The notes under the pieces were generated by a model that saw only the letters and a list, made by a program, of their open reading frames with translations, did no database searches and was not told the DNA's origin. From an uncultured cyanobacterium (lineage in GTDB: Bacteria > Cyanobacteriota > Cyanobacteriia > Cyanobacteriales > CAWUOF01), in the NCBI GenBank assembly GCA_963744145.1, contig CAVUSO010000001.1:4320001-4384000 (forward strand): a DNA stretch of 64,000 nucleotides, in the 5' to 3' direction. Both the position numbers and the translations under genes were made by a program. Shown here in pieces: positions 23,601 to 30,279 of this stretch; the stretch's first letter is position 1; each line of letters begins with the position of its first letter.

Positions 23601-24002
23601 ATGAGTTATTTATTAGATACTAATATTGTTTCTTTTGCGATTCGGCGAAATTCTCAAGTCCTTCAAAATATTAAAAAAGTTGAAACTGAAGAAAATATCT
23701 TCATTAGTTGCATTACCTATTTTGAAATTAAGCGAGGATTTTTAGCGGTTGATGCTCCTAAACAAAAGGCAAGATTTGAAGAATTTTGTCAAATTTATCC
23801 GATTATTTTATTAGATGATTTAGAAATTTTAGAAAAAGCATCCGAAATTTATGCTAATCTGAGATTAAGAGGTTTGCCGATCCAAACTGAAGATATTTTA
23901 ATTGCTGCTACTGCTATAGTTAAAGGTTTAATTATGGTTTCTAATGATACAGATTTAGTAAGAATTGAAGGTTTAAATTTAGAAAATTGGGCTCAATTAT
24001 AA
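23601..24002 (+). CDS. vapC: VapC/PIN-domain toxin
   Basis: YLLDTNI, ITYFEI, DILIAATA, SNDTD. Confidence 0.9.
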   Translation: MSYLLDTNIVSFAIRRNSQVLQNIKKVETEENIFISCITYFEIKRGFLAVDAPKQKARFEEFCQIYPIILLDDLEILEKASEIYANLRLRGLPIQTEDILIAATAIVKGLIMVSNDTDLVRIEGLNLENWAQL

Positions 24003-24604: not shown

Positions 24605-25822
24605 TTATTGACTTGATTCTAGTTGTTCGATCGACTCAATCAGCGATCGGATTGTAGCAGTACCTTCAGAACTTTCAAAGTGAAAAGGTAATTTACCCCG
24701 CATCAACATTCTTAATCCCAATGGTCCTAATTTAGCAAGTTTCATCCAACCTTCTAAGGAATGATTAAATAAGCGGAGAGCAAATTCACGCTCATTAATC
24801 CAACCTCCTTTTTTGACCAAGTCTACCAATAACTTACGATGACGAATCGGTTGACTGGTAGATTCATCCTTACGAGTGAGGATTTCTTGTTTAATTTTGC
24901 TAATTTGATCCATTGGTGCTACTTCCATTGGACAAACACTATTACAGTAAAAACAACGAGTACAACCCCAAACACCTCTGGTATCTTGATTATATTTTTC
25001 TAACCGATTTTCAGTTTGCCGATCGCGCGAGTCTGCTACCATGCGATAAGCTTTAGCCAAAGCATGGGGACCGACAAAACCTGGATTTACCTTTACTGCA
25101 TTACATTCAGAGTAACAAGCTCCACATAATATACAATTACCAGTCTGATCCAACTCCGATCGCTCGTTTGGGGTTTGTAAAAATTCGCGATCGGGAATTT
25201 TCCTAGCACCTGTTGAGACATAAGGATCAACTGCTTCCAGATTTTGCCAAAAACCAGTCATATCTACCACCAGATCCTTAATTACGGGCATATTGCCCAT
25301 CGGTGCTATAATAATTTCTGGAATTGACTCGATCGCGGTTGAAGTTGGGGTCAAATTGACTACTGATGTGGCGATCTGCTGTAGACGTGCTAATTCACTA
25401 CCCACATTTTCCTTACAAGCTAGAGCAGAACGACCATTTATTACCATTGCACAGCTACCGCAAATGGTATTGCGACAATTTTTCCGAAAAGCTAAAGTAC
25501 CATCTTGTTCCCATTTAATTCGATTGAGACAATCCAGGATGGTATTTCCAGGATCGACATCTAGAGTGTATGCTTGTTCCCTAGCTGTATCCTGAGCGGA
25601 GTCGAAGGTTGTACCCTGAGCGGAGTCGAAGGTTGTACCCTGAGCGGAGTCGAAGGTTGTACCCTGAGCGGAGTCGAAGGTTGTACCCTGAGCGGAGTCG
25701 AAGGTTGTACCCTGAGCGGAGTCGAAGGTTGTACCCTGAGCGGAGTCGAAGGTTGTACCCTGAGCGGAGTCGAAGGGGGGAGTATTCTCTGGCGATCGCC
25801 TGATTTTAACAATGATTTTCAT
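24605..25822 (-). CDS. sdhB: succinate dehydrogenase/fumarate reductase iron-sulfur subunit with in-frame repeat insertion
   Basis: CRNTICGSCA, CILCGACYSEC and CTRCFYCNSVCP motifs. Confidence 0.93.
   Translation of the reverse strand: MKIIVKIRRSPENTPPFDSAQGTTFDSAQGTTFDSAQGTTFDSAQGTTFDSAQGTTFDSAQGTTFDSAQGTTFDSAQDTAREQAYTLDVDPGNTILDCLNRIKWEQDGTLAFRKNCRNTICGSCAMVINGRSALACKENVGSELARLQQIATSVVNLTPTSTAIESIPEIIIAPMGNMPVIKDLVVDMTGFWQNLEAVDPYVSTGARKIPDREFLQTPNERSELDQTGNCILCGACYSECNAVKVNPGFVGPHALAKAYRMVADSRDRQTENRLEKYNQDTRGVWGCTRCFYCNSVCPMEVAPMDQISKIKQEILTRKDESTSQPIRHRKLLVDLVKKGGWINEREFALRLFNHSLEGWMKLAKLGPLGLRMLMRGKLPFHFESSEGTATIRSLIESIEQLESSQ
25586..25776. repeat. 8 x 24-bp tandem repeat CCTGAGCGGAGTCGAAGGTTGTAC inside sdhB
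   Basis: Period 24 from 25591 to 25759; encodes (FDSAQGTT)n. Confidence 0.97.
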
Positions 25823-25940
25823 TTTTGATCCTAAAAAAATAAAATAAGCTATTTTGCTGTAATCGCATTGATCGGATAACCTGTTCAGATATAATAACAA
25901 TTTATGGCGATCGGTTAAAGTCGCTTGTGAGTGATCTGTG

Positions 25941-26058
25941 TTGGTTGGGCAGGTTTATGATAGTTATCTGTTTGGATCAGAATTAATTGGTGAACCTGCC
26001 CCTACAAATCCTGGTTCATTGTGAGCATAAATTCATTCACCTGCCCTTACAAATCCTG
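25941..26058. repeat. long-loop GTAG REP element plus partial second copy
   Basis: GGGCAGGTT...AACCTGCCCCTAC; reverse complement of 30461-30538. Confidence 0.85.
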
Positions 26059-26311
26059 TTAATCTTGTAATCCTCTCATCCTGATCGATTTTTTGGTGAA
26101 TCCCTGTAGGGTTACCGCTGAATTTGCTACACACAAATAACCGCATATCCGTCCCACTCCAAGAATTTTGCTGTATGGCTGAATTATCTAGGCTCGCGAT
26201 CGCTAGATGGCTCGGATATGTTTTAGGTGTCTTTTGGTCTGTTTTTCTCAATAATTGGTAAACTTTTCAGTGTAGCGATCGCATATCGAAAATTATTAAT
26301 ATTGTAAGTAT

Positions 26312-27103
26312 ATGAGCATTCAGGAAAAATTCAAAACTGTATGTGCTTTGAAAATATTTGAACCAGGTTATGAAAAGCCGTGGTTAACAGACCCTAATAA
26401 ATGTGATCAGATCCAAAATAAGCTTTCCTATTTTAATCCTAACCATAGCAATAGTTCAGAACATATTGATCAAGTTTATAAAGCGTTAACTAGAGGAGTT
26501 GGTCTAGTTGAAGCAGGGATAGAATGGGAAAATCCCGCAATTGGTGAAAAACCTAGACCCCGAAATAAAAGTAGTATCCTTGATGAAAGCAATATAGTTG
26601 ATGAAAATACGACAACTGGTAAAGAAAAGTCTCGGCGAACTGATACTGATAAATACCGAGGTATTCAATGGAAACTGGTAATCGTTTATGTTGGCTTTGA
26701 GATTATATCCAAAACATTAATGATGGATAAGTTTAATCGGACAGTTCCACCAGGAATGTATGAGCAATTCCTTGAAAAATGCGCTCTGCCTGATTACAAA
26801 CCAATAGCCGCGCCAGAGAAAAAAAGCCTTACTAAATGGCTTGATAAAGAAGATGGAGCGTTGGCAGAATTTTTGGGGATAGGGGCGGGAGATAAGAAAG
26901 CTATTGATCGATGGTTAGTTGAATCAAAACCTGTAGATTCCTGGGAACAAGCATACAAGCTAGCAAAAGCCATGAGAAATGCTTCTGCACATGGATTTCT
27001 ACTACCAAGTAGGATTGGTAAATGGGGATTAAAACATGGATTTCGTAAGTTAACTGATGATTTAGCACTAATTGTTACTGAAGGACTGAGTAAGATTACT
27101 TAA
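26312..27103 (+). CDS. putative HEPN-domain protein
   Basis: ExxxK (FEIISK) and RxxxxH (MRNASAHG) motifs in a helical protein. Confidence 0.6.
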   Translation: MSIQEKFKTVCALKIFEPGYEKPWLTDPNKCDQIQNKLSYFNPNHSNSSEHIDQVYKALTRGVGLVEAGIEWENPAIGEKPRPRNKSSILDESNIVDENTTTGKEKSRRTDTDKYRGIQWKLVIVYVGFEIISKTLMMDKFNRTVPPGMYEQFLEKCALPDYKPIAAPEKKSLTKWLDKEDGALAEFLGIGAGDKKAIDRWLVESKPVDSWEQAYKLAKAMRNASAHGFLLPSRIGKWGLKHGFRKLTDDLALIVTEGLSKIT

Positions 27104-27145
27104 TTAGTCTTTTGAATTTTGTCTAAATTGATTTTGTCAAAGGTA

Positions 27146-27175
27146 TTGACAAGTAGTTGTGATTCAGCATATTAT
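27146..27175 (+). promoter_or_regulatory. sigma70-type promoter with overlapping palindrome
   Basis: TTGACA-N18-TATTAT; TTGTCAA-AGGTA-TTGACAA inverted repeat over the -35. Confidence 0.55.
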
Positions 27176-27177
27176 TA

Positions 27178-27716
27178 AGTTGATAAATACACAAAGAGCT
27201 GAAGACCGCAAATTTTCGCGCTTCTTGTGTATTTTTCAACTTTTGTGGCTAAATTAATAAGATTGCAAGTCCAAACACAGATAGTTGGTATCCGGCGCAT
27301 CAAATCAGGGTATTGACAATCTTGACGGTTGGTTGTAAAGTAGGTTCAATGTTTATTTGTCATTAGGCAATTGATTGAAAAAGCCCTAGTTTTCATTGCC
27401 ATTGCACAAATACAGCATATTCCTGATTGATGAAGTACACTCTGGAAGTGAAGATCACCTATTTTTAGTGCTATCTAGTGTACTTTTTTGAGCAAATATG
27501 CTGCATACAGAGACTCTGAAGGCAGCGAATTTACGCTCTTCAGCAGGTTCAATTAGGTGCAATTGGCTCAGAAAACCCTCGTTTTCACGGCTATTGTATA
27601 AGTACACAAAGAGCTGAAGACCGCAAGTTTTCGCGCTTCTTGTGTACTATCCAATATTTGTCGCTAAATTAATAAGGTTGTGAGTCCAAACGCAGACAGT
27701 TGGTATCCAACGCAAA
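27178..27716 (+). ncRNA. putative structured ncRNA cluster (repeated hairpins)
   Basis: About 105-bp direct repeat (27188-27293 / 27603-27708) plus diverged hairpins with compensatory changes; no convincing ORF. Confidence 0.5.
27313..27341 (+). promoter_or_regulatory. second sigma70-type promoter inside the hairpin cluster
   Basis: TTGACA-N17-TAAAGT. Confidence 0.5.
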
Positions 27717-27849
27717 AAGCAGGAGCTTAGTCAATACCCATACCATCAACCTATAATGAAAGATGTTCCATGTAGCGTAAGCTAATATTTGGTAGATTTT
27801 ATGTCTTAAATACTTGTCTCTATTTATCCAAAAAAAAAGGAGCATTATT

Positions 27850-28212
27850 ATGGATGAAGTAGTAAAAAAAATAGCCGCTATTGGTCTACCAGGTATCATC
27901 TTTGTAATCACAATGGCCACCACAGGTTTAGGTGGAGCAGCTGCAATTACCAAAGCCTTATATCTATTAGGTCCTGGTGGGATGATTGGCGGTATTGTTT
28001 TTCTGGGAATAATCGGATTAGTTTCGGATACTTTGACTAAATATGGGTTGACAGAATTTCTGAAAGCCGTATATGTAGAAAGGTTAGCAAAAGGCGAATC
28101 TGCGGTAGATTTATGCAAAGAGATTGATTATTTGTTTATTACTAATGAGCTTAAGCTAGTGCTTAAAGACCATTTGTCTACTATTACTAATCAAGGAAAC
28201 AGAATCATGTAA
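27850..28212 (+). CDS. small Gly-rich membrane protein
   Basis: AAGGAG RBS before ATG; GLPG...GPGGMIGG hydrophobic segments. Confidence 0.75.
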   Translation: MDEVVKKIAAIGLPGIIFVITMATTGLGGAAAITKALYLLGPGGMIGGIVFLGIIGLVSDTLTKYGLTEFLKAVYVERLAKGESAVDLCKEIDYLFITNELKLVLKDHLSTITNQGNRIM

Positions 28213-28248
28213 TCGCACTCTTCCAGCAAAAATGACCGTTGATTTTTT

Positions 28249-28363
28249 GGCGTTGCTTAATCAGGGTATGAAAATCCTGTAGGGGCGCAAGAGCCATGCG
28301 CCCTGGGAGCAAGAGCCATACGCCCCTACAAATTATTTATTCATACCGTAAATCAGCAACGCC
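28249..28363. mobile_element. MITE-like element with internal REP
   Basis: TIRs GGCGTTGCT..GGTATGAA / TTCATACC..AGCAACGCC enclosing GTAGGGGCG...CGCCCCTAC; right end repeated at 30406-30443. Confidence 0.8.
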
Positions 28364-28364
28364 C

Positions 28365-28454
28365 CAATTTGCTCATAAGGTCAAAAAGAGATATCAACTC
28401 AAACTAATTGTTTACGAACCGTTAACTGAGGAGATTGTGCAATGGATAAATTAG
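28365..28454 (+). pseudogene. xisH: 3' remnant of xisH
   Basis: QFAHKVKKRYQLKLIVYEPLTEEIVQWIN*, overlapping the xisI start. Confidence 0.75.
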
Positions 28455-28777
28455 AGCATTATAGAATCTGTATCCAAGCCATCTTAGAACAGCATAGCCA
28501 ATATAAATCCAATGACGAAAATATCGAAAGCGCACTTTTTTTTGATCCAATACGCGATCACTACCAATTGATGCGGATCGGCTGGAAAGGCTTAAAGAGA
28601 ATCTATTACACTATCCTACATTTCGATATCAAAGAGGGCAAAATTTGGCTTCAGCAAAATACCACTGATAGCGATGTAGGTGAAGAACTATTGGCAATGG
28701 GTATTCCCAAAGAAGATATTATTCTGGGTTTACATCCTCCCTACAAGCGTCCTTATACCAAATATGGTGTTGCTTAA
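28442..28777 (+). CDS. xisI: XisI family protein
   Basis: DHYQLMRIGW, HFDIKEGKIWLQQNTTD, GIPKEDIILGLHPP. Confidence 0.93.
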   Translation: MDKLEHYRICIQAILEQHSQYKSNDENIESALFFDPIRDHYQLMRIGWKGLKRIYYTILHFDIKEGKIWLQQNTTDSDVGEELLAMGIPKEDIILGLHPPYKRPYTKYGVA

Positions 28778-28889
28778 AACCTCATGAACGATGTTCTCAC
28801 AGGTAAATTGATCTAGCCAATAATTCCCGATCGCATTTTTTGCTACTATCAAAAACCAATTAAAAATACAATAACAGGAGATTTTTATT

Positions 28890-29459
28890 ATGTCTCTGAT
28901 GACAGTTAAAGACTTAGAGCAAGTTCAAAGTACACTCTCTGAGGCGGGTTTAGATTATCAATTAGAATTAGAAAATGGGAGAATTCAAATTGTGGGGCCA
29001 TCAGATATCGTATCTAGCGAAATTGGGATTCGTCTCAGTGCTTTTCTGTTTGCCTGGGTCAATCCTCGCCGTCTCGGTCGAGTATTTGACTCCGCAGGTG
29101 GTTTTATGATGCCCGATACCAATCTGAAAGCCCCCGATGTTTCTTTCGTGCGAGCATCCCGTCTGCGCCAAAGTGTGCGTTACTTTGCCGAATTGGTGCC
29201 GGATTTGGTGGTGGAAATCAAATCTCAAAGCGATCGCGTCAAGTCTATAGAAAAGAAAATTCGGAAATTTTTAGAATTGGGAGCTACAGTCGGTATTCTC
29301 ATCGATCCGGATGAGTTAACTGTTACTGTTTATCGCGATCGCAGCGAACCGCTTGTGCTAGAAAATGAAGATATCTTAACAGTTCCAGAACTTTTCCCTG
29401 GTTGGGAATTACCTCTTAAGGAACTGTGGCCCCCTGTTTTTACCGAAGACGAAGTTTAA
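28890..29459 (+). CDS. Uma2 (DUF820) family endonuclease
   Basis: APDVSF, PDLVVEIKS, LIDP, LFPGW. Confidence 0.92.
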   Translation: MSLMTVKDLEQVQSTLSEAGLDYQLELENGRIQIVGPSDIVSSEIGIRLSAFLFAWVNPRRLGRVFDSAGGFMMPDTNLKAPDVSFVRASRLRQSVRYFAELVPDLVVEIKSQSDRVKSIEKKIRKFLELGATVGILIDPDELTVTVYRDRSEPLVLENEDILTVPELFPGWELPLKELWPPVFTEDEV

Positions 29460-29685: not shown

Positions 29686-30279
29686 ATGGTAAGAAAAATG
29701 ATCGCAGTAGCAACAGCAACGATAGCAACAGAACCAACAAGAAAGAAATTCACGGTAGAGGAATATTACAAGCTGGGTGAAGTTGGGATAATTGGACCTG
29801 ATGAACGGACGGAATTAATTGATGGGGATATCATTCTTATGTCACCGATGGGACGTCGTCATTTTGGTTTTTTAATTCGACTGAATAGAATTTTTTCCAA
29901 GCTTTTTAATGATCGTGCTTTAGTAGCGATACAAGGTCCAGTCAGACTAAACGGAGAATTACAACCAGAACCCGATCTATTAATTTTGAAACCTTGTGGA
30001 GATGATTACATAGAATCAGATATCCAAATCCAAGACATTTATTTACTAATTGAAGTAGCGGATACCACTATTAACCATGACCGCAATGTGAAGTCAGTCC
30101 TATATGGCAGAGCTGGGATTATTGAGCTTTGGATTGTAGATATAAATGCTGAATTAGTAGAGGTGTATCGCAATCCTGGTCCGAACGGTTATGAAAGTAT
30201 CCAACAATTCAGACGCGGCGAAAGTATCTCACCCCTGGCATTTCCAGATTTAGTAATTAGTGTTGACGATATTTTGTAG
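29686..30279 (+). CDS. Uma2 (DUF820) family endonuclease
   Basis: FTVEEYYKL, ELIDG, PEPD, LIEVADT, YGRAGIIELWIVD. Confidence 0.92.
   Translation: MVRKMIAVATATIATEPTRKKFTVEEYYKLGEVGIIGPDERTELIDGDIILMSPMGRRHFGFLIRLNRIFSKLFNDRALVAIQGPVRLNGELQPEPDLLILKPCGDDYIESDIQIQDIYLLIEVADTTINHDRNVKSVLYGRAGIIELWIVDINAELVEVYRNPGPNGYESIQQFRRGESISPLAFPDLVISVDDIL

Follow-up and report, generated by a model that had tools for sequence, protein, structure and literature searches.

A HEPN-like gene followed by promoter-driven hairpin RNAs in filamentous cyanobacteria resembles a protein-toxin/RNA-antidote pair

Results

Organization of the locus

Within the window (the whole stretch of DNA that was analysed, 64,000 nucleotides from an uncultured cyanobacterium), a gene at 26312..27103 encodes a HEPN-like protein of 263 amino acids with the motifs E130-x3-K134 and R222-N-x3-H227. 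It is followed by two promoters, a cluster of hairpins that includes two long direct-repeat copies, and a small Gly-rich membrane gene (27850..28212) with the Shine-Dalgarno sequence AAAGGAG, all on the forward strand. The initial annotation had described this arrangement as a 263-residue frame containing FEIISK and RNASAH, a TTGACA promoter about 40 bp past its stop, about 550 bp of repeated hairpins and the membrane gene on the same strand, and each of these elements was found as described. It had further proposed an RNA-controlled HEPN module that possibly included the membrane protein. The HEPN-like gene occurs once per genome in the source cyanobacterium.

A probable HEPN-type RNase

Searches of the 263-residue protein against Pfam, NCBIfam and PADLOC returned no match, with no Pfam family at E <= 1. 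FEIISK and RNASAH correspond to E130..K134 and R222..H227, respectively; E130, K134, R222 and H227 are invariant in an alignment of 20 homologues, and conservation of E130, R222 and H227 is 90% or more across 60 diverse family members. In the passages of a HEPN survey that define the domain (PMC3710099), the catalytic motif is given as Rx4-6H closing helix 3, its arginine directly followed by a polar residue (N, D or H), and helix 2 is described as carrying a further conserved acidic position upstream, usually as part of Ex3[KR]. Both elements are recognisable in the structure model, which is helical: R222-N-A-S-A-H227 ends helix 211-226, with the histidine just past the helix, and E130-I-I-S-K134 lies within helix 103-137.

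The fold check suggested by the initial annotation gave answers on both sides. A Foldseek search of the PDB returned nothing at E <= 0.001, whereas a VIA-align search against 48,161 chains placed HEPN domains or HEPN-fold proteins, which are all-alpha up-down bundles, in 13 of its top 14 rows (Z 6.3-8.2; some rows were labelled by their titles, and 1ylm, 1wwp, 1ufb and 3c18 by the survey or general background). The fourteenth, 3mfn, is titled as a protein of unknown function, and AbiV, Csm6 and LsoA appear further down the list. The best match, 2hsb, covers 118 residues at an rmsd of 3.5 and a Z of 8.2, which falls inside the range, below 8-13, where scores can come from common helical arrangements. 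A profile search of PDB sequences gave 0 matches at E <= 10, and Pfam HEPN models run on the 60 family members gave nothing above a single match at E 0.083. We regard the evidence from the fold for HEPN likeness as moderate.

Known HEPN dimers unite two catalytic motifs, as in structures of Cas13, Csm6 and KEN-domain proteins, and a dimer of this kind was predicted here. The homodimer scored 0.82 compared with 0.46 for the best control, a mark reached by 20 of 30 proteins solved as one-chain pairs and by one of 23 solved as single chains; contacts agreed between runs to at least 70%, and the pLDDT of the partner was at least 81. The predicted symmetric interface comprises residues 116, 120, 124, 127-128, 131, 134 and 226-229, and residue 226 contacts its counterpart in the partner chain, so that the histidine motifs of both chains are joined at the interface. 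Relatives of the protein carry fusions to WD40, PQQ or LRR repeats and in this respect resemble effector domains. The HEPN hallmarks claimed initially are thus borne out in motifs, their placement, structural matches and predicted dimer, and the protein is probably a HEPN-type RNase of a family not previously filed.

Promoters and hairpins behind the gene

The first promoter, P1 (27146..27175), begins 43 nt past the stop codon of the HEPN-like gene and agrees with the sigma-70 consensus at 11 of 12 positions (TTGACA, an 18-nt spacer, and TATTAT at 27170-27175). A GGTATTGACA-type box recurs behind the stop codon in most homologues. Hairpin A (27181..27243; 62.6 bits with our hairpin model R1) is a covarying structure whose extended stem arms span 27177-27199 and 27220-27242; it begins a few nucleotides past the -10 box of P1, where transcription is predicted to start, and a U-rich tract comes after it. 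Together with a 55-nt tail it forms the first copy of a direct-repeat unit (27183..27299). The second promoter, P2 (27313..27341; TTGACA, a 17-nt spacer and TAAAGT; 10 of 12), has in front of it the GGTATTGACAA box that also precedes P1. A transcript from P2 is predicted to open with hairpin B (27354..27412), of which a partial copy lies at 27559-27606, and a long hairpin (27433..27489) followed by six T would provide a terminator-like end to the P2 unit; it was not called in a terminator scan.

Farther downstream lie hairpin c (27510..27545), a degenerate version of hairpin A's inner part that lacks the outer stem and was recognised partly by eye, and hairpin A' (27596..27658; 56.8 bits with R1), which belongs to the second copy of the direct-repeat unit (27598..27714). 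The two 117-nt copies are 87% identical and spaced 415 nt apart. A promoter scan found no promoter-like site specific to hairpin A', which is therefore presumably read from P2. The region 27177-27714 also holds partial repeats and 18 inverted-repeat pairs, and a search for tandem arrays in 27104-27813 yielded just one 10-bp row present twice. This latter interval is found nowhere else in the genome, apart from some 30-57 nt at 27409-27465, part of the long hairpin, with three short matches elsewhere. In the 7.7-Mb genome, R1 found just the two local copies, with 150 of about 3100 candidates scored.

Rfam searches of the window region 25900-28600 and of seven homologue loci gave only rows at chance level. 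Two other roles for the hairpins were considered and rejected. Peptide coding was set aside by eye, since short frames occur in single loci and are conserved neither between the copies in the window nor between clades. Antisense control of the gene's mRNA, as in type I systems, was discarded since duplex energies of nine hairpins with the 5' region and the whole mRNA were no better than those of shuffled RNA (z -1.5 to +1.9).

Linkage of gene and RNA across homologues

We examined homologous genes for an RNA in the same position. A promoter and hairpin directly behind the gene were found at 34 of the 49 homologue loci with enough downstream DNA. When a promoter and a hairpin with 11 bp or more were required in the first 300 nt past the stop, 30 of 42 loci qualified compared with 166 of 2100 shuffles; the larger count adds L012, L013, L014 and L019, the last three through R1, together with seven more negative loci. 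Across the loci the hairpin begins 6-10 nt past the -10 box. Compensatory changes are present in 10 of the 14 stem pairs, 94.7% of alignment cells are paired compared with 78.8% in shuffles, and the covariation score of 0.589 exceeds that of shuffles (0.285; 0 of 500 as high) and of slid controls (0.10-0.18). Among 21 metagenome loci fetched after R1 was built, nine match the model.

The linkage is also exclusive in the genomes scanned. Across 121 Nostocaceae-level genomes R1 gave four matches, all adjoining the gene or its remnant, and none in the 108 genomes without the gene, with a subset of the first-look candidates scored in these scans. The hairpins have in common their basal stem and a short loop motif, with conserved loop bases at C-U-G/C-A and CAAA positions and loop nucleotides shared between Microcoleus-type and Nostocales loci. 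Their interior is between roughly 25 and 150 nt long, depending on the clade. Long-hairpin variants in Okeania, Trichodesmium and Lyngbya were missed by R1 and recognised by a promoter-plus-stem script and by eye. These comparisons of sequence support the view that the structured RNA, with its promoter, accompanies the gene as a conserved partner and is not a local accident.

Nine homologues forming one clade (support 100/98) have no recognisable promoter-hairpin RNA, and six of the nine sit behind the same large gene at a fixed chromosomal place. No such RNA was recognised at four distant loci of non-cyanobacterial type, or at L011 and L020. No substitute partner was found in the RNA-less loci; the protein may therefore lack intrinsic toxicity or be under some other control. 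The RNA-less clade and the four distant loci speak against a simple, obligatory toxin/antidote pair.

Distribution and genomic context

The HEPN-like gene is present in one of 60 relatives of the same order and in 13 of the 121 Nostocaceae-level genomes, three of these 13 being remnants. In one of these remnants, G182, the gene is reduced to residues 142-199, and one intact RNA unit remains together with its promoter; this is a single case. Culturable carriers of the gene include Lyngbya sp. PCC 8106, Anabaena cylindrica UHCC 0172 and Capilliphycus salinus. The neighbourhoods vary and include integrase, Uma2, XisI and PIN genes, and the genes downstream differ between clades and are convergent at L013, L016 and L018. 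No family of open reading frames (at least 30 aa) within 2.5 kb is common to more than two of seven clades, and neither a minimal nucleotidyltransferase (MNT) nor any other conserved protein neighbour was found across the clades within that distance. A phage origin was rejected, as no relative and no exact match to the inner 24-mer of the window's hairpin were found in a viral contig collection.

For the Gly-rich membrane protein, Pfam, NCBIfam and PADLOC gave nothing useful. The co-occurrence check proposed initially favoured the hairpin only: the membrane gene belongs to a cyanobacterial family with a much wider distribution, none of 24 homologue loci has a counterpart of it within 4 kb, and it has its own promoter-like site past the RNA cluster. 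It was therefore dropped as a member of the system; of the module first envisaged, the HEPN hallmarks and the conserved RNA partner stand.

Two other features surround the locus. Just upstream, at 25920-26040, lies a dispersed repeat of 120 bp, of which the genome has at least 40 copies. The absence of HIP1 sites from this span had been pointed out, and none lies between 26282 and 29230 compared with 89 in the window; this gap of about 2.9 kb carries little weight, since by our own estimate it is roughly the largest expected at that density.

Discussion

Together, the gene and its hairpin RNA look like a new form of protein-toxin/RNA-antidote pair. We give about an even chance to a type III-like toxin-antitoxin or abortive-infection pair made of a HEPN RNase and an RNA antitoxin, similar to AbiF/RCd22, which would give filamentous cyanobacteria a selfish or defence module in two parts. 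The HEPN-family RNase would work as a homodimer in which two R-N-x3-H motifs meet at the interface, and the dimer would be expected to cut RNA independently of metal and to be toxic if unrestrained. One or two small hairpin RNAs transcribed from the DNA immediately 3' of the gene, each presumably from its own strong constitutive-type promoter and thus made in excess of the protein, would bind the dimer and keep the RNase inactive, in the manner of type III RNA antitoxins and RCd22. If the locus were lost, or host transcription blocked during phage infection, the RNA would run out and the RNase would be set free. Against this reading, the RNA lies downstream with its own promoter and its copies do not form a tandem array, whereas in all type III systems and in AbiF/RCd22, to our knowledge, the RNA is upstream and co-transcribed. 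In addition, a hairpin with a U-tract has the appearance of an intrinsic terminator as well, and covariation would be expected of any hairpin that is conserved.

The precedent that had been invoked initially, an AbiF-type HEPN toxin paired with a noncoding RNA, is real. As described in the relevant parts of PMC12373285, AbiF_Cd from Clostridioides difficile phage phi027 is a toxic HEPN protein (Abi_2, AbiD/F) that is neutralised by direct binding of the noncoding RNA RCd22, which contains two copies of the abiF motif (RF03085). The cyanobacterial pair is similar in combining a HEPN-type protein with a small structured RNA that would be expected to neutralise it by direct binding, typically with two copies of the RNA motif, a consensus housekeeping-sigma promoter for the RNA and no protein antitoxin. 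It is nevertheless different in protein family, RNA motif, gene order and the RNA's own promoter. The protein has no match to Pfam Abi_2 or in PADLOC, RF03085 finds no match (E <= 10 in 25900-28600; E <= 1 in the seven homologue loci), and the RNA copies have separate promoters downstream of the gene and do not occupy a co-transcribed 5' leader; the hosts are cyanobacteria.

Other known systems share some of these features. RiboL-PSP-HEPN (PF18735), which the survey presents as a distant relative of AbiF and AbiD (PMC3710099), has both motifs in the same order, with L-L-Y-A-x-x-E-x-F in helix 2 where the present family has L-V-x-A-Y-x-G-F-E, and RN-x-x-AHG. The nearest named cluster in a protein atlas (score 0.82) has PF18735 in 22% of its members. 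The PF18735 model, however, gives no match for the window's protein and none above the Pfam cut-off in the family (one of 60 members, at E 0.083), hhalign assigns a probability of 7.9% over 19 columns, and the present family differs in its insert between helices 2 and 3, which bears a likeness to a sigma-region-4-like helix-turn-helix.

The type III toxin-antitoxin systems ToxIN, CptIN and TenpIN pair toxins not known to be HEPN proteins with a short tandem-repeat RNA that lies upstream, is separated from the toxin gene by a terminator, and is excised by the toxin. The present pair would follow their logic, in which an adjacent RNA antitoxin with repeated units restrains an endoRNase toxin; unlike these systems, the present locus has long hairpins in two 117-nt copies, placed 415 nt apart downstream of the gene, with promoters of their own. 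The likeness to HEPN-MNT (type VII) systems lies in a small HEPN RNase toxin acting as a dimer, and 5yep, 7ae2 and 8xdj are among the best structural matches, but no counterpart of the adjacent MNT antitoxin gene of those systems was found within 2.5 kb here.

RNA-neutralised HEPN toxins have so far comprised one studied case, AbiF/RCd22, and one Rfam motif. Should the antitoxin reading be correct, the present pair would be a second, independent family of protein and RNA with the same logic in an inverted layout, in which the RNA follows the gene under its own promoter, and RNA control of HEPN RNases would be more general than thought. Such a pair would offer a compact, testable two-part system for cyanobacteria, of whose toxin-antitoxin or abortive-infection systems only a few have been investigated; a hairpin of 55-190 nt from its +1 and a protein of 240-260 aa are small enough for structural work. 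The protein would also represent a new HEPN effector domain, fused in WD40, PQQ and LRR repeat proteins.

Gene-RNA linkage identical to that behind the antitoxin reading would also be seen if the hairpin were a cofactor, activator, guide or invader-sensing decoy of an RNA-gated or RNA-programmed nuclease and not a simple inhibitor. The conserved basal stem and loop around a variable interior suit this idea, in which the lineage-specific interior would give specificity, and the discussion of AbiF-type proteins in PMC12373285 links them structurally to Cas13 ancestors. However, within clades the hairpins showed no spacer-like turnover, the viral contig collection has no exact match to the inner 24-mer, and the RNA pairs with the gene's mRNA no better than shuffled RNA does; we judge this reading improbable. 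Its strongest form, in which the RNA is an integral subunit that gates or programs a minimal dimeric HEPN RNase, as a CRISPR-independent ribonucleoprotein whose stem and loop dock and whose interior senses or selects a target, seems to us quite improbable; it would be a living analogue of the proposed AbiF-like Cas13 ancestor. A pair without toxicity, in which the HEPN protein matures, trims or stabilises a small RNA acting in trans, would share the conserved linkage and would suit the clade at a fixed place, where the gene resembles a domesticated one more than it does a mobile toxin. That clade is, however, exactly the RNA-less one; the patchy distribution, remnants and varied neighbourhoods better fit selfish or defence modules, and no trans target was identified. 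We consider such a processing or regulatory role unlikely.

Fairly improbable, in our assessment, is the absence of any direct partnership, with the hairpin serving as the gene's terminator and the promoter serving the downstream gene or an independent, co-travelling small RNA. The U-rich tract behind the hairpin and the same-strand gene downstream in the window are compatible with this arrangement. Yet the promoter lies between stop codon and hairpin, so that the hairpin is the first thing transcribed; the genes downstream vary between clades and are in places convergent; the window's membrane gene has a promoter-like site of its own; conservation of the loop between Microcoleus-type and Nostocales loci is, in our judgement, unexpected for a mere terminator; and in the genomes searched the hairpin occurs beside the HEPN-like gene only. 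Finally, we give almost no credence to the hairpins being ordinary dispersed REP or MITE repeats of the genome, an explanation suggested by the 120-bp repeat just upstream. A search like the one that returned at least 40 copies of that repeat did not find the many scattered copies expected: the interval behind the gene is unique but for its one short stretch, R1 matches the two local copies only, and homologous hairpins lie behind the homologous gene in other genera.

A cyanobacterial protein family with HEPN motifs

The open reading frame at 26312-27103 (+) encodes a protein of 263 aa, single-copy in the window's genome, for which searches of Pfam, NCBIfam and PADLOC gave no match at E <= 1. 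A word-indexed search yielded 38 homologues, whose named sources are all cyanobacteria, mostly filamentous (Microcoleus, Okeania, Allocoleopsis, Cuspidothrix), and a family of 202 members at E <= 0.001 emerged when 1.84 billion representatives were searched in full with HMMER. The two motifs singled out in the initial annotation, ExxxK and RxxxxH, proved invariant across an alignment of 20 homologues, in the forms G-F-E130-x3-K134 and K-L-A-K-A-x-R222-N-x-x-A-H227-G-F-L. Among 60 diverse members, R116, Q119, W120, G128, E130, W201, R222, H227, G228 and L230 are invariant or at least 90% conserved. The HEPN survey describes as hallmarks an Rx4-6H motif at the end of helix 3, a polar residue after its R, and an upstream acidic residue in helix 2, typically in Ex3[KR] (PMC3710099); all three are present in the 263-aa protein.

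Several sequence comparisons provide weak leads toward HEPN. HEPN_RiboL-PSP (E 0.083), Csx1_HEPN (E 0.14) and pEK499_p136 (E 0.22) were each matched by one of the 60 members. In a protein atlas, the closest named cluster (score 0.82) is a lead at most, with PF18735 present in 22% of its members. When the profile was compared with that of 18 PF18735 members from cyanobacterial genomes, only the helix-2 motif aligned, with a probability of 7.9%. The protein thus falls outside that Pfam family, although both conserved motifs look alike in the two consensus lines.

An AlphaFold2 model of the protein is all-helical (mean pLDDT 82.9, pTM 0.81), with a helix at residues 211-226 that ends in R222 and with H227 opening the next loop. 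Foldseek against the PDB gave no match at E <= 0.001. A Foldseek-independent search of 48,161 chains returned HEPN-type proteins in 13 of the 14 best rows, headed by 2hsb at Z 8.2, a moderate value of the kind that, by the tool's own warning, helical bundles can reach by chance; it is the HEPN enrichment among the matches that counts, not the score itself. The other rows include 5yep, 4nqf, 8xdj, the sacsin HEPN domain, 1jog, the AbiA HEPN domain and 7ae2, as well as 1ylm, 1wwp, 1ufb, 1wol and 3c18, which we take to be HEPN-type from their titles, the survey or other background. The fourteenth row, 3mfn, is titled as of unknown function, and AbiV, Csm6 and LsoA appear lower in the list.

Homodimer prediction passed with a score of 0.82, against 0.46 for the best control, a mark reached by 20 of 30 proteins whose solved structure pairs two copies of one chain and by 1 of 23 solved as a single chain; the runs agreed in at least 70% of contacts, with partner pLDDT of at least 81. 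The predicted symmetric interface involves conserved positions 116, 120, 124, 127-128, 131 and 134, plus 226-229, and residue 226 touches its counterpart. Active HEPN dimers share this arrangement, with the motifs at the dimer contact, and the predicted dimer would match them.

Of the 20 longer family members scanned, 11 carry a fusion to PQQ or WD40 beta-propellers or LRR repeats, which fits an effector domain. Distant members (loci L048-L050 and proteins P0060, P0061, P0067, P0068, P0072, P0074, P0098 and P0139) adjoin large repeat proteins or are joined to them in one chain. These repeats are of LSD-x-AA-x-LS type, LRR, WD40 and PQQ propellers, an association that suggests sensor-effector architectures built on the HEPN-like domain.

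Residues 175-234 (window about 26834-27013) span the catalytic helix and the insert that separates HEPN helices 2 and 3, and contain a conserved FLG-x3-GD-x-K-x-I-x-RWL stretch. In the model they align with the helix-turn-helix of sigma-factor region 4 (Z 5.0-5.7, rmsd 1.8-3.6, about 50 residues). This segment could form a nucleic-acid-binding surface, and promoter binding is conceivable given the invariant TTGACA box downstream.

A predicted promoter and hairpin RNA follow the gene

The predicted promoter P1 (27146-27175, +; TTGACA-18-TATTAT, 11/12) lies 43 nt past the stop codon and is followed by hairpin A (27177-27242, +), whose 23-nt arms are 87% complementary. A second promoter, P2 (27313-27341, +; TTGACA-17-TAAAGT, 10/12), has the same GGTATTGACAA box and precedes hairpin B (27354-27412, +) and a long hairpin that ends in six T (27433-27489, +). 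Next, the inner part of hairpin A recurs in degenerate form (27510-27545, +), and then comes a second copy of hairpin A and its tail (27598-27714, +), 87% identical to the first (27183-27299). A third promoter-like site at 27728-27757 stands upstream of the small membrane gene. A terminator scan of the cluster stretch called none.

Rfam holds no family matching the hairpin RNA. The stretch 27104-27813 is unique in the 7.7-Mb genome, apart from about 30-57 nt at 27409-27465. That part of the long hairpin, before its T-run, has three short chromosomal matches (81-93% over 29-57 nt); the rest of the cluster has none elsewhere in the chromosome. A REP or MITE repeat is ruled out for the cluster because of this near-uniqueness, in contrast to the multi-copy element upstream at 25920-26040. 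The latter, which separates the HEPN-like gene from an sdhB-like gene, is a dispersed repeat of about 120 bp that can form a hairpin; the genome has at least 40 copies, 88-96% identical, and the element is probably of MITE or REP type; its Rfam row, mir-449 (E 0.0016), is at chance level.

Linkage and covariation across homologues

We compared homologous loci from species-representative genomes (24), metagenomes (21) and two genome samples (8: L054 and L081-L087). In most of them a TTGACA-type promoter lies 15-80 nt past the stop codon and the first paired base of a hairpin 6-10 nt after the -10 box, so that the hairpin begins at the predicted transcription start; its 3' arm enters a U-rich tract, often UUUUCCC. 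A strict script, which required a promoter no more than 120 nt away and a perfect stem of 9 bp or longer, scored 21 of 42 loci as positive, against 0-5 per 100 shuffles per locus; a relaxed one (promoter within 300 nt, stem of at least 11 bp, one mismatch tolerated) scored 30 of 42, against 166 of 2100 shuffles. With seven negative loci added, together with L012, which the relaxed script missed and our first regular expression found, and L013, L014 and L019, recognized by hairpin-model match, promoter and hairpin occur at 34 of 49 loci. L004, L037, L038 and L051 were left out of this count for short downstream DNA, and L082, nearly identical to L081, was outside script scoring and negative by eye.

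Hairpin sequences vary among clades while the structure is kept. We aligned 15 short hairpins, taken from the window and from Microcoleus, Symploca and Nostocales loci, with MAFFT. Compensatory changes occur in 10 of 14 consensus pairs, and 94.7% of cells are paired, where column shuffles reach 78.8%. Covariation scored 0.589, against 0.285 in shuffles (none of 500 as high) and 0.10-0.18 with the partner column slid. Several unpaired positions are conserved across distant genera. At Okeania, Trichodesmium and Lyngbya loci the hairpins are much longer (about 100-185 nt), and their basal stems covary too.

A covariance model built from the 15 hairpins found just the two window copies in the window's genome, with 150 of about 3100 candidates scored, and two local copies and no others in the genome of L019. 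It matched 9 of the 21 metagenome loci, none of them used in model building. In 121 genomes sampled from the family to which L019 belongs, the protein profile was positive in 13 (ten full length, three remnants). With filters that were stricter above 40 genomes, the RNA model was positive in four, each time just after the gene or what is left of it, and matched nothing in the 108 genomes that lack the HEPN-like gene. By these comparisons, the gene and the hairpin RNA are conserved partners.

A second structured stretch, rich in GC, and a conserved 72-aa open reading frame (MKQSAKFQKGQRVG...) come after the hairpin RNA in the Microcoleus clade (L001-L003, L031-L036, L046), about 300 nt past the gene. 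The open reading frame has no Pfam match and is absent from the window.

Loci without the RNA, and a decayed module

A maximum-likelihood tree of 46 rows was built without L021 (frameshifted), L033 and L034 (identical to L032), L037, L042 and L046 (partial or redundant), L050, L082 and the duplicates L078-L080. RNA-positive loci fall into five well-supported clades. Nine loci (L023, L024, L054, L081, L083-L087) form an RNA-less sister clade (support 100/98), which is syntenic, since the same large gene (about 1200 aa) directly precedes the HEPN-like gene in six of them; their gene is apparently a vertically kept copy. RNA-bearing loci are without synteny: among open reading frames of 30 aa or longer that lie within 2.5 kb, no family is common to more than two of seven clades. 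Also RNA-less are L047-L049, a distant group (26-30% identity) that sits between large repeat-rich open reading frames instead. At L011 and L020 the promoter box is mutated, and AT-rich hairpins alone are left. L012, missed by the relaxed script, is listed with the RNA-less loci as well.

One genome, G182, carries a remnant (L091, reverse strand about 1004-1562). Of the protein gene, residues 142-199 alone survive, joined to the middle of RNA unit a; the catalytic end and P1 are deleted. RNA unit b is intact (74.8 bits), with a TTGACG-17-TATAAT promoter. Loss of a toxin with retention of its antidote is what a toxin-antitoxin pair predicts, here in one case only.

Possible mechanism

The most economical reading is a type III-like pair, in which a dimeric HEPN RNase would be restrained by an abundant hairpin RNA that a strong promoter of its own would supply, right at the 3' side of the gene. 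Weaknesses of this reading include fold evidence that is only moderate and the existence of an RNA-less clade. Less probably, the hairpin RNA may be a cofactor or guide of the HEPN protein, or the two may form a non-toxic processing pair; the association of gene and RNA is common to these readings and to the toxin-antitoxin pair. The unit might also, again less probably, be a mere terminator plus promoter. Antisense action of the hairpin on the gene's own mRNA was not supported by a duplex test.

The one studied precedent known for an RNA-neutralised HEPN toxin is AbiF_Cd/RCd22, whose RNA has two abiF motifs, binds directly, and acts in cis and in trans (PMC12373285). RiboL-PSP-HEPN is described in the HEPN survey as a distant relative of AbiF and AbiD (PMC3710099). 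The logic proposed for the window module is the same, whereas protein family, RNA family and architecture differ. The layout is inverted: RCd22 is the 5' leader of the toxin mRNA, whereas the RNA of the window lies 3' with its own promoter. Full-text searches of openly available articles gave no account of the cyanobacterial family or its RNA. On this comparison, the family, the RNA and the architecture appear to be new, and the logic is that known from AbiF/RCd22.

Genomic neighbourhood

Of 60 same-order relatives searched, one has the HEPN-like gene. Across loci its neighbours include PIN, XisI and Uma2 genes, and a tyrosine recombinase in the Lyngbya-type clade. The Gly-rich membrane protein of 120 aa (27850-28212), which the initial annotation had considered a possible component, is a neighbour and no part of the module: no homologue lies within 4 kb of any of the 24 genome loci. 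Its family is without a Pfam domain and has 85 homologues of about 110 aa (42-68% identity) in filamentous and unicellular cyanobacteria.

Upstream, a 24-bp unit repeated 8.0 times with 99% matches (25586-25776) sits in the 5' part of a minus-strand open reading frame (24605-25900) for a 2Fe-2S/4Fe-4S succinate-dehydrogenase-type protein. If translated, it would give eight FDSAQGTT repeats at the N-terminus; the actual start codon may be further downstream. The stretches 28296-29459 and 29686-30279 cover a short open reading frame matching the one before xisI in L019, then a XisI gene (28442-28777) and two Uma2-family genes after it. With a PIN-domain gene at 23601-24002, the neighbourhood is rich in small mobile or addiction-type genes.
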